Origin: a virus
Taxonomy: Duplodnaviria; Heunggongvirae; Uroviricota; Caudoviricetes
Virus record (IMG/VR): IMGVR_UViG_2778260969_000002
Strand: one strand, 5' to 3'
DNA length: 7,315 nt
Of this stretch, positions 1-3,000 are shown piece after piece. How positions within the stretch are numbered: the stretch's first letter is position 1; the number at the start of each line of letters is the position of its first letter. Position numbers: made by a program.

Positions 1-3000
1 GGCATCCCACTGAGCAGACGTGAGCGTTCCGCACGAGATACATGGTAAGTCGCGGTCTCTTTCTCTGATGAAGGCGTTTACGGCTTGTTGGGCTTGTTTA
101 ATCCAGTAACTGCGGGGCTTTAAGGCGAGTTTTCGAATCTTAATTTTATCTTTCTGTTTCTGCTCCTCTCGTCGTCGTTTCTTCTCTGCTGTTTTTTCCG
201 CCTTTTCGCGTTCTTTATTTCGTCGTTCGAGTGCTAATTTAGTTCCGTGTTCCGGGCTGCACCACCACTGATTTGAGAATGCCGGGTGAAACCATTCCTT
301 ACAGATTTTGCATTTCCTTCGCGCTGGTTTAGCCATTAAGCAGCCTCCCCTGTTACTTTAAGCATTCCGTTATCTAGCAGCTTTCTTGTCAGCCACTGTT
401 GACCACGCCCGGTGATTTTTGTGGTGAACGATATCTGTATTCCGTGATTTGTATTGACCGCTGTTTCTTTCACTGTGAAATAGCCGCGATCCATATATTC
501 CTGCATTGGCACATTGCGCCGGGCACCTGAAGCAATAAGGATTTTGTGATCGCGCATCCACGCAAACCGTTTGTTTGGACCAATACCAACAACCTTTGCA
601 AAGTTTCCAATCAAAATTCCGCTGGCCTCGCCAACTCGATCGGCAAACTCAACTTTAGGTGCTGCGAGAGCAAGCTGTTTCTCCAGTTCAGCCTTCTGGT
701 CTTCAAGGTCGGCCGCAAGGCGCAATGCCTCAGAAAAGGTTTGTGGTATTTTCGCGGTTGCCCCTTCGAGTTCTCGCCAGCGGTCAACAAGGCGAGCGGT
801 GAATTCCGGCGACAACTGAGCGACGACAATAATGCTGTCTCGCTTACCTTGTTCGCCTTCGAATATATACACGCTTGTGAATTTGTTAGGGCTAATTGTT
901 TGTTTATTTTCAACTTTTTGCATTGAAGGAAGTTGAATCACCCCACGCTTTGCCAGACGTTCTATTGATATTCTGACATTACCGTGTTGGCTTCCCACCA
1001 ACTCAGCGATTTCAATGCTTGTCATTTTGATGGCATTGCTATTTATCAGCTCATTCATTGTCATGTCCTCTCACATTGAAAATTCAGCAATAAAAAACCC
1101 AGCCGAAGCTGGGTTTGTTAAGTTGTCAATTGTCAGTAGCGATGCAGTGAAGGCGGCAACTCTTTGTTCTTAAGCCTTTCCCATGCCAGAAGGTTCGTCG
1201 GCCCGTCAGGCTCATAAATATCTATATCCCGCGTGTGATTAATTAAAACGCCCCTCGCCCTCCCGATGATATACGAGAACTCATAGCCGTAGTCGTGGCA
1301 TATGCCGGAATAGCCAGACTGAATCAGTTTTAATGCGGGATACAACTCACGGAACAATGCCTGTGAGCGGTTGGCATAATCCCACAGCCATACAAGGCTG
1401 TCTGTTTCTTTTGCGGAAAGCCCGTTGAGCTTCTTCTCTTGTTTGCCAGTATTTTTCTCGCACTGGCTGAAATAGCAGTCTTCCAGTTTTTCGAACACTT
1501 CCCACGCCCGATCGGTTTCGAGCATTTTTGCGTGACGGGCTGCGCCGCGTTCTGTCCAGAGGATGAGGGAGCGGGCTTTCGGGGAAATTTGTAACCCTCT
1601 TAAAGATGGTTGCAAATTTTGTGAGTTACTTAAAGTAACCCGCAAATTTTGTGAGTTACTTAAAGTAACCCGCAAATTTTGTGAGTAGTTTAAAGCTACC
1701 CGCAATTCTTTAAGGTCATTACCAACAACTTTGAAAAAGTGTTTCCCTTCAACGAAGCGTACTTTGTTCTCATGATGATTCTGGCGAATACGCACCGGCT
1801 CAGTGCCGTAAAGCTGCGCCAAAAGTTCGGTGGTAATAACAGGAATCTGGTTATGGGTGATCGGGGAGAGAGTTTCAACAGAAATTTTAGTTGTCATAAT
1901 GACGCCCTCTGGTGGTTTCTTAATAACTCACCACCGACGACGCCAATCGTCTGGTGGTGAACTGTGCAGGGTTGGCGTAACCGGGAAACCGACCGGCGCG
2001 GATCTCTCCGCCCCCACACAGCCCACCATAATTCAGATGTGCGCGTGCATACGACAATAAAAAACACGCTCGCGGCGTGTATCTGTCGCGGTCTCTATCC
2101 AGGACGCCAATCCCGACGCCAGATTTTGCTGGCGTTTGAGGAATATAGCCCCGAATAAATCATCACGTCAATCACCTTGTTTTCCTCGCACGATGTCTTA
2201 GCCACCGGATATCCCACAGGTGAGCCGTGTAATTGAAGGTTTTTACGTCAGATTCTTTTGGGATTGGCTTGCGTTTATTTCTGGAGCGTTTCGTTGGAAG
2301 GTATTTGCAGTTTTCGCAGATGATGTCGGTGATACTTCGTCGCTGTCGCCTCATGCAGCCCTCCTGACGCCCAGCCCGATCGCCATCAATGCCGCTTTGG
2401 ATACGGTAGTAAACATCCGTCGAGGACTGATGAACGGTCGCCAAATCAGCAACATTGAGCCTTTGCTGTTTCCCTTCTTCTCCAGCCCTGTCGATGGTTC
2501 GATAAAATTAATCCGTCCATCAGTGATGATGCGAACTTCGTCAACACTCTCCAGAGCCTTGCTGAACCATCCGACAGACATATCCTCTGGCACAAGCATC
2601 ACTACCGTCTGTCGCTGTTGTATGCACTGCTCAGCGGCTTTTTCCACCCACGGCCTGATATTGCTGTACGGTGGGTTATTCCAGATTGCACCGTGGCTTA
2701 TCCACTCAGAATTTAGCGCGTCGTCAGCCTCAGTTAGCCAGTGAGCGCACAGAGCGTTTTTGTCGCTCGCAGCTGAATCCAGCCAGAATCCAAACTCAAT
2801 ATCCAGCGCATCAAAAAGCCAGAGCGGCGTTTGCCAGCAGTCCTTGTCGTGTGCTGGCGTATTTGATTTGATAGTCATGCAGCCTTCCCTTTTCGTTGTG
2901 ACCATTCATACTCTCGCCGGGAGTCATCACTCCACCGCACGTTGCGCTCTGAGCCGAACCAGAACATGATTTCGATAAGCTCAGTCATGCTGGCCTTTCG

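Follow-up and report, generated by a model that had tools for sequence, protein, structure and literature searches.

An array of palindromes in the ant gene of a Shiga toxin phage

The stretch of viral DNA analysed here (7,315 nucleotides of the IMG/VR record IMGVR_UViG_2778260969_000002, hereafter the window) is the replication and nin region of a lambdoid Shiga toxin (Stx) phage, with every gene on the minus strand, and one of these genes carries an in-frame array of palindromes. The gene encodes a 254-residue protein with an N-terminal ORF6N domain (PF10543; E 2e-18, 66.8 bits against a gathering cut-off of 27.8) and a C-terminal P22AR_C domain (PF10548; E 1e-23), and it matches the 'putative Ant' gene of Stx2 phage 1717 at 100% identity; as Ant is the annotation used in Stx phages we refer to the gene as ant. 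The array is a local elaboration of something far more widespread, as comparison with other genes shows that a palindrome is present in nearly all sampled ORF6N-type genes, always in the stretch bounded by the two beta-strands ahead of the (W/F)TE(R/Q)G helix.

An earlier note on the window had described a palindromic 30-bp tandem array lying in frame in the ORF6N gene, and this array is real. Tandem Repeats Finder reports a period of 30 at 1612-1705 (3.1 copies, 92% matches, score 153), and exact copies of GTTACTTAAAGTAAC stand at 1625-1639 and 1655-1669; when as many as three mismatches are allowed it has 5 matches in the window where 0.2 are expected, a number that 0/200 shuffles reached. 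The note had counted three dyads of 6-3-6 form. The identical pair and the third unit (1685-1699, GTAGTTTAAAGCTAC) stand, but the count must be raised by a fourth dyad at 1595-1609 (CCCTCTTAAAGATGG) and the symmetry is longer than proposed, with arms of 13-19 nt, among them 19-nt arms at 84% (1613-1631/1633-1651) and 17-nt arms at 88% (1585-1601/1603-1619). The dyads are thus four in number, two of them identical units, and their centres lie 30 bp apart. The array is in frame in ant, where its four 10-residue units make up residues 65-104 and fall within the ORF6N match. The gene and the elements of the array, in the order in which they are transcribed, are:

1133-1897, minus strand, ant, the 254-aa protein with N-terminal ORF6N and C-terminal P22AR_C domains, host of the array (from the open reading frame (ORF) list and Pfam)
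1679-1705, minus strand, dyad unit C, centre 1692, first in the gene, encoding LRVALNYSQ (aa 65-73)
1649-1675, minus strand, dyad unit A1, centre 1662, encoding LRVTLSNSQ (aa 75-83)
1619-1645, minus strand, dyad unit A2, centre 1632, a perfect 30-bp copy of A1, encoding LRVTLSNSQ (aa 85-93)
1585-1619, minus strand, dyad unit 0, centre 1602, last in the gene, aa 95-104
1613-1621, 1643-1651 and 1673-1681, self-complementary A/T junctions CAAATTTTG, centres 1617, 1647 and 1677

Unit C reads TTGCGGGTAGCTTTAAACTACTCACAA on the sense strand, with 13-nt arms and 3 mismatches, and unit 0 reads AAATTTGCAACCATCTTTAAGAGGGTTACAAATTT, with 17-nt arms and 2 mismatches; the core of unit A1, GTTACTTTAAGTAAC, is perfectly palindromic. 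No spacers separate the units, the 34-nt arms of one inverted-repeat pair (I1) extend over two units, and the CAAATTTTG junctions are themselves palindromes, which makes them, at 30-bp spacing, both direct and inverted repeats.

The ORF6N match runs from residue 12 to residue 125 of the protein and covers positions 3-86 of an 86-position profile, so that about 30 extra residues lie inside the domain, which bears out the view that the repeats expand a segment of it. A full-length AlphaFold2 (AF2) model was unusable, with a predicted local distance difference test score (pLDDT) of 36.6. A model of residues 1-152 built with a more diverse alignment (pLDDT 71), usable for the N-terminal domain only, predicts a strand at 18-22, helices at 23-30 and 34-43, a strand at 54-58, a helix from 59, a low-confidence stretch at 75-98, a strand at 110-115 and a helix at 116-126, and as modelled the domain resembles winged-helix DNA binders. 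A PDB sequence search returned nothing relevant.

Several familiar kinds of element were considered for the array and set aside. A clustered regularly interspaced short palindromic repeat (CRISPR) array is ruled out because the units abut without unique spacers and are translated in frame. An intrinsic terminator or internal promoter does not fit, as promoter and terminator scans were empty there and the A+T-rich stems have no U-tract; a -1 frameshift site (A AAU UUG before a hairpin) was dropped because alleles of the FK(H/N)R type have no such site. A protein beta-hairpin mirroring the DNA arms is disfavoured by the model, which predicts a helix followed by a disordered connector and not a hairpin that turns at the centre.

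The palindrome across the subfamily of the window

With residues 110-254, the C-terminal part of the protein, as query, a scan of genomes returned 80 loci, spanning Enterobacterales, Acinetobacter, Burkholderiales, Chromatiales, Desulfovibrionales and Rhodospirillales. In nearly all of them a codon-symmetric palindrome of 27 nt ends 13-30 nt before the LILWTERG codons, with arms of unrelated sequence. An unbiased scan of whole coding sequences likewise placed the strongest palindrome 13-56 nt before these codons in 27/28 distinct E. coli-phage alleles, among which at least 12 different arm sequences occur. Alleles with a single unit have the palindrome at the identical place and differ in the arms, examples being AAATTTGCGAGTAAC-TTT-TAGTTACCTGCAAATTT, TTTGCGACTTACTT-T-AAGTAAGTCACAAA, CACAGAGTAG-CTTTTAA-CTACTCTGTG and AACAGACCCGA-AACAA-TCGGGTTAGTT.

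When codons were resampled synonymously, 42/61 non-redundant variants scored above 95% of their own nulls, where about 3 would be expected, and synonymous choices covary between the arms: where a Val codon is the partner of the palindrome's first codon, it is GTG in 10/12 cases if that first codon is His CAC and GTT in 10/13 if it is Asn AAC. MAFFT misaligned two arm families in the 84-nt segments, and a gapless 39-column alignment of 47 sequences centred on the dyad was used instead. In this alignment 11/11 stem pairs show two-sided, compensatory changes, a count that centring on the dyad does not favour, and 88.4% of cells pair, a figure that it does favour, against 27-37% with a slid partner; the alignment has a covariation score of 0.813 and shuffles one of 0.234, and 0/500 shuffles reach 0.813. 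Pairing stays at 65-98% at distances of 3-13 from the centre and falls to 30% at 14 and 9% at 15. The earlier note had named a palindrome unconserved in homologues as the outcome that would tell against it, and the opposite is seen, namely compensatory change across the whole gene family.

In a locus of Erwinia tracheiphila (L084, ~1143-1171) the ORF6N copy is broken by stop codons, and a palindrome with 13-nt arms and one mismatch persists (TTTGCGACTTACTTTGAGTAAGTCACAAA).

The palindrome in distant ORF6N genes

More distant ORF6N genes were collected from viral and metagenome contigs by the peptide pattern YAFTEQGV, that is, independently of any palindrome. Synonymous-codon resamplings were beaten at the 95% level by 106/112 non-redundant segments with GC contents of 27-64%. 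The palindrome is centred 39-51 nt before the YAFTEQGV motif and has the same +/-13 nt (27-nt) span as in the subfamily of the window, with 92% Watson-Crick pairing; in a gapless alignment of the two peptide families the centres of the two subfamilies lie 1 nt apart. Here the sequence itself is kept, with a consensus of TTGAGGTCACAA-A-TTGTGACCTCAA across the whole 27-64% GC range, covarying positions of the kind TCACAA/TTGTGA, TCGCAA/TTGCGA, TTCCAA/TTGGAA and TGCCAA/TTGGCA, and the rare codons TTG, TCA, CAA and AGA retained in genomes of 60-64% GC. The core GGTCACAAATTGTGACC is read as RSQIVT in most of the genes and as LVTNCD in five, i.e. in another frame; at L305, L312, L329, L341 and L368 the core GGTC(A/G)CAAATTG(T/C)GACC is kept while the frame is shifted (LVTNCD or VANCD) and restored on both sides.

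Per 120 nt, the ORF6N segment contains 0.81 strong palindromes and its flanks 0.023, an enrichment of about 35 times. Some of the distant loci, about 12 out of 80, have further family-type palindromes immediately ahead of the start codon, 240-400 nt from the in-gene copy on its upstream side; the eight that were examined closely are non-coding or remnant, and in one locus (L351, ~380-470) the upstream palindromes form an array of three. Additional leader palindromes of the family type were also seen at L263, L304, L356 and L358, the number being one to three per gene across such loci.

Because the symmetry exceeds synonymous-codon nulls, covaries between the arms and is conserved across two frames, we conclude that it is selected at the nucleotide level. 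By these sequence comparisons the palindrome is shown to be maintained as nucleotides and not as a by-product of the peptide.

Copy-number variation and the shuffling of units

The earlier note had allowed that the array might be a length-variable region, and the copy-number comparison agrees, with 0, 1 or 2 A-type units among near-identical Stx phages and E. coli prophages. Among the phage and E. coli genomes searched, the matched ant stretch measures 765, 735 or 705 nt, and a protein search gave length classes of 254, 244, 234 and 224-228 aa, which within the type of the window differ solely by the number of A-type 10-residue units and by the presence of LQPSLRGLQ. Unit A1 is missing from 234-aa alleles and single in 244-aa alleles, and unit A2 is confined to the 254-aa class; across IMG/VR loci 0, 1 and 2 A-type units were found in 6, 17 and 6 genes. 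With units head to tail and a copy number that varies in near-identical genomes while the ORF stays open, the array is an in-frame coding variable number tandem repeat on both counts.

The flanking copies, which had been called degenerate, turn out to be something else. Unit C is the counterpart of the single palindrome in one-unit homologues and the sole unit of a 226-aa allele (L071), and the outer units C and 0 occur elsewhere alone or combined differently (C alone, A+0, C+0, E+0, C+A+0); they are therefore distinct alleles and not decayed copies. Independent tandem duplications of the 10-codon unit have taken place in Pectobacterium, Citrobacter, Symbiopectobacterium and Acinetobacter. These comparisons show that the array arose by in-frame tandem amplification of a single ancestral 10-codon unit and varies in copy number. 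We propose that the C-A-A-0 array would have been assembled from different alleles by out-of-register recombination or by replication slippage at the self-complementary CAAAATTTG junctions, which are the probable place of its construction because each junction is an inverted as well as a direct repeat at 30 bp. The protein may tolerate the array because the units fall in a surface connector.

Genomic setting of ant

In the window ant lies between ninE and roi, as it does in VT2-Sakai. The other genes of the window are:

window end, minus strand, 3' part of an O-like replication gene
5359-6735, minus strand, DnaB-type helicase
4669-5280, minus strand, free-standing HNH_3 and AP2 endonuclease of the homing-endonuclease type, between the replication genes and the nin genes
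2875-3423, minus strand, NinB
2351-2905, minus strand, Dam-type methylase
336-1064, minus strand, Roi-like pRha/KilAC protein, downstream neighbour of ant

In phage 1717 an ISEc8 insertion lies between the HNH endonuclease and DnaB genes (L081 12201-14642), and none is present at window 5280-5359, so that the window derives from a relative of phage 1717 and not from the phage 1717 record itself. The sole notable dyad of the roi-like gene is a weak 16-bp near-palindrome, AACCTTTGCAAAGTTT, at 591-606 in its KilAC part.

Upstream of ant, on the same strand, Rfam matches were obtained to the c4-a1b1 target family (2096-2148, 45.9 bits, slightly below the cut-off of 46.7), to isrK (2059-2135, 74.7 bits, E 4e-15) and to the C4 antisense RNA (1950-2033, 66.7 bits, E 1e-11). 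These matches place ant in an antisense-RNA-controlled cassette resembling P1 immI or the isrK-anrP module of Gifsy-1, here situated between ninE and roi. A leader ORF of 57 codons with a GTG start (1894-2067, minus strand; orf34 in the VT2-Sakai annotation) crosses the C4-like region, and its stop codon overlaps the start codon of ant (ATGA), which recalls the translationally coupled leaders icd of P1 and orf45 of Gifsy-1. A promoter-like site, TTGACG-18-TATATT at 2171-2142 (minus strand), is followed about 60-100 nt downstream by a terminator-like hairpin at 2080-2064, an arrangement as would be expected of a short isrK-like RNA. A second terminator-like hairpin at 1116-1095 (minus strand), 17 nt past the stop codon of ant, has the position of isrJ in Gifsy-1, and with the two hairpins the ant cassette is bracketed by terminators.

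Comparison with known systems

With c4-icd-ant of P1/P7 immI and isrK-orf45-anrP of Gifsy-1, the ant gene of the window shares the c4-a1b1, isrK and C4 matches and the overlapping leader ORF. Those systems work at the 5' leader, unlike the intragenic array of ant. The isrK-anrP locus is described as an antisense-RNA-controlled antirepressor module of Gifsy-1 (PMC4825925), and the passages of that paper on hairpins, palindromes and inverted repeats mention no element within the antirepressor coding region.

A closer parallel is found in the window itself. The O-like gene contains four in-frame TTAGC-N7-GCTAA dyad iterons, 20-24 bp apart, at 7129-7214, beside an AT-rich repeat tract at 7093-7132; judged by these features, 7093-7214 is the phage origin and a second dyad array over coding sequence in the window. 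In lambda the origin iterons lie inside gene O and are bound by the product of gene O. Lambdoid gene O and ant have in common a variable N-terminal domain, an in-frame array of four dyads and a conserved C-terminal part, whereas the ant array differs in having no adjacent AT-rich tract, in a host protein that is ORF6N/P22AR_C and not an initiator, in its 30-bp spacing and in its variable copy number. A lambda-type origin at 1583-1725 was rejected for the first two of these reasons.

Cognate sites inside genes are otherwise familiar from parS inside parB/spo0J, lac O2 in lacZ and gal OI in galE, and the nin-region DNA-binding protein Roi of HK022 is reported to bind within its own gene. Such sites share with ant a palindrome laid over coding sequence, sometimes in the gene of the binder itself, but they are conserved in sequence for one protein, whereas in the subfamily of the window the arms differ almost freely. 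Bacterial and phage coding minisatellites share the head-to-tail units, the unit length that is a multiple of three, the variable copy number and the preserved frame; the ant unit differs in being an ancient, family-wide palindrome, and its array in mixing three allelic unit types. Finally, the quasi-palindrome hotspots of E. coli thyA and T4 rII share an imperfect coding palindrome whose arms change in concert and whose mismatches are strand-symmetric, but those are individual mutational hotspots and the ORF6N palindrome is held at one domain position across phyla and frames.

A candidate control site within the ORF6N gene

Taken together, our observations point to the palindrome as a candidate control site inside coding sequence that has not been described before; literature searches that covered Stx antirepressors, ORF6N and Roi as well as the motif sequence turned up no account of a palindrome in ORF6N genes. 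With a little less than even confidence, we propose that it is a dyad-symmetric, operator-like site at the DNA level for a dimeric protein, most probably the winged-helix ORF6N domain encoded by the same gene. The palindrome would act as double-stranded DNA, and domain and site would travel as one unit. The protein would act on its own gene, by autoregulation or as a roadblock, or would use the site to nucleate binding, and the four dyads of the window at 30 bp, about three helical turns, would give a multi-site version. The earlier note had already suggested that a dimeric protein, possibly the encoded one, binds the array, and such binding is here inferred from the comparisons above.

A number of observations weigh against this proposal. 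An unbroken symmetry of 27 bp is long for an operator. Positions 4-8 vary freely in the subfamily of the window and stay complementary, which a stem-loop recognised by structure alone predicts and a protein site does not need, and three different palindromes stand side by side in the window's own gene. In a few high-GC lineages (L136, L145 and L147) the gene is kept and the palindrome lost. A search for partner sites found no second copy of the window's palindromes in 50 kb of phage VT2-Sakai and no second copy of the subfamily palindrome near the gene in 40 subfamily loci. The upstream copies belong to a minority of the distant genes; some match the in-gene copy at the variable positions and several do not, and those of L291 and L356 are gene-fragment remnants. 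Within the window itself, too, no extra copies of its palindromes occur, and neither the window nor its subfamily has a promoter-proximal partner site.

The free variation of the arms makes a sequence-independent stem-loop a serious rival, if in our judgement a rather unlikely one. A single strand would then fold into a hairpin of 11-13 bp, either in ant mRNA or as a DNA hairpin or supercoil-driven cruciform, and could serve as a translation-sensitive pause or processing site that helps to keep the antirepressor silent or as the target of a structure-specific protein, the extra units being by-products of slippage. Covariation at every stem position with free choice of sequence in the subfamily of the window speaks for such a structure, as do the three different palindromes within one gene, the sharp ends of the helix at +/-13, and an AT-rich centre with arms of 11-13 bp, the textbook size for cruciform-forming repeats. 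Both strands of 1575-1735 also fold far better than shuffles (z = -5.2 sense, -6.6 antisense). A selected RNA helix normally accepts G.U far better than A.C, however, and the arm mismatches show no such preference, with G.T against A.C at 22 vs 18 in the subfamily of the window and 20 vs 27 in the distant subfamily. Symmetry also reaches positions where a hairpin loop needs no complementarity, at +/-2 (78% in the subfamily of the window, 97% in the distant one) and often at +/-1. Since G.T is not commoner than A.C and the centre is symmetric, we place the constraint at the DNA level. Of the usual marks of a structured RNA, compensatory pairs are present throughout the stem, while a G.U preference and an Rfam family are absent: the array gave chance-level miRNA matches only (E ~0.8) and 20 distant loci gave no match. 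No U-tract follows the array and no terminator-like site lies within it, and the stem-loop does not account for the conservation of the sequence itself across 27-64% GC and two frames in the distant subfamily. These observations argue against a purely RNA structure and leave room for an mRNA hairpin.

A third explanation, which we regard as improbable, is that the palindrome has no function and perpetuates itself neutrally: after a quasi-palindrome had arisen where a permissive loop is encoded, template switching within a strand would correct one arm by the other faster than point mutation could part them, and the same hairpin would promote slippage duplications. E. coli is known to correct quasi-palindromes by template switching, and in the ORF6N genes the mismatches are strand-symmetric and mostly of the transition type, many of the palindromes are perfect right up to the centre, tandem duplication recurs in many lineages, and the palindrome has been lost without loss of the gene in some. 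The segment is moreover modelled as a low-confidence connector that can accommodate 10-30 extra residues. Neutral correction does not explain, on the other hand, why the palindrome is present with the same 27-nt limits in 106/112 and 42/61 genes that diverge widely and span many phyla and GC contents, why rare codons are kept at 60-64% GC and the nucleotide core is conserved across two frames, or why intact copies, non-coding where inspected, stand upstream of genes when nothing comparable is found in flanking DNA.

A hotspot of recombination or module exchange, at which the hairpin or dyad would stall replication or be cut by a structure-specific nuclease and would mark the joint where variable N-terminal ORF6N modules swap against the conserved remainder of the gene, is very improbable, for although E. 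coli phage alleles are variable through the palindrome and nearly invariant from ~15 nt downstream (CGCTCCCTCATCCTCTGGAC...), units are shuffled among alleles (C+0, A+0, E+0, C+A+0), the upstream ORF6N fragment of L291 ends directly after its own palindrome and the recombination genes NinB and NinG are neighbours, ordinary homologous recombination in the conserved 3' block explains the mosaic joint equally well, no recombinase is consistently linked to the element, and its nucleotide-level conservation in non-phage metagenomic ORF6N genes is left unexplained.

Implications for ORF6N proteins and Stx phages

ORF6N is among the commonest N-terminal modules of the 'antirepressor' and regulator proteins of phages and mobile elements, and a palindrome kept at the nucleotide level in nearly every member provides a concrete candidate target for it. 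It is possible, though on balance doubtful, that ORF6N is a self-contained module of domain plus site, in which essentially every gene carries the dyad site of its own product in the segment encoding the wing tip. If this were so, domain and target would be passed on, exchanged and diversified jointly, as if the repressor and operator of a specificity pair were merged into a single stretch of DNA, and the four-dyad arrays of Stx-phage ant would be natural multi-site variants that tune the response. The palindrome is also a case of overlapping codes, as the protein motif LRSQIVTS and its relatives may be conserved largely due to the DNA that encodes them. For the Stx phages the length polymorphism of the array is, at minimum, a usable typing marker and, if the dyads regulate ant, their copy number could influence prophage induction and thereby the release of toxin.

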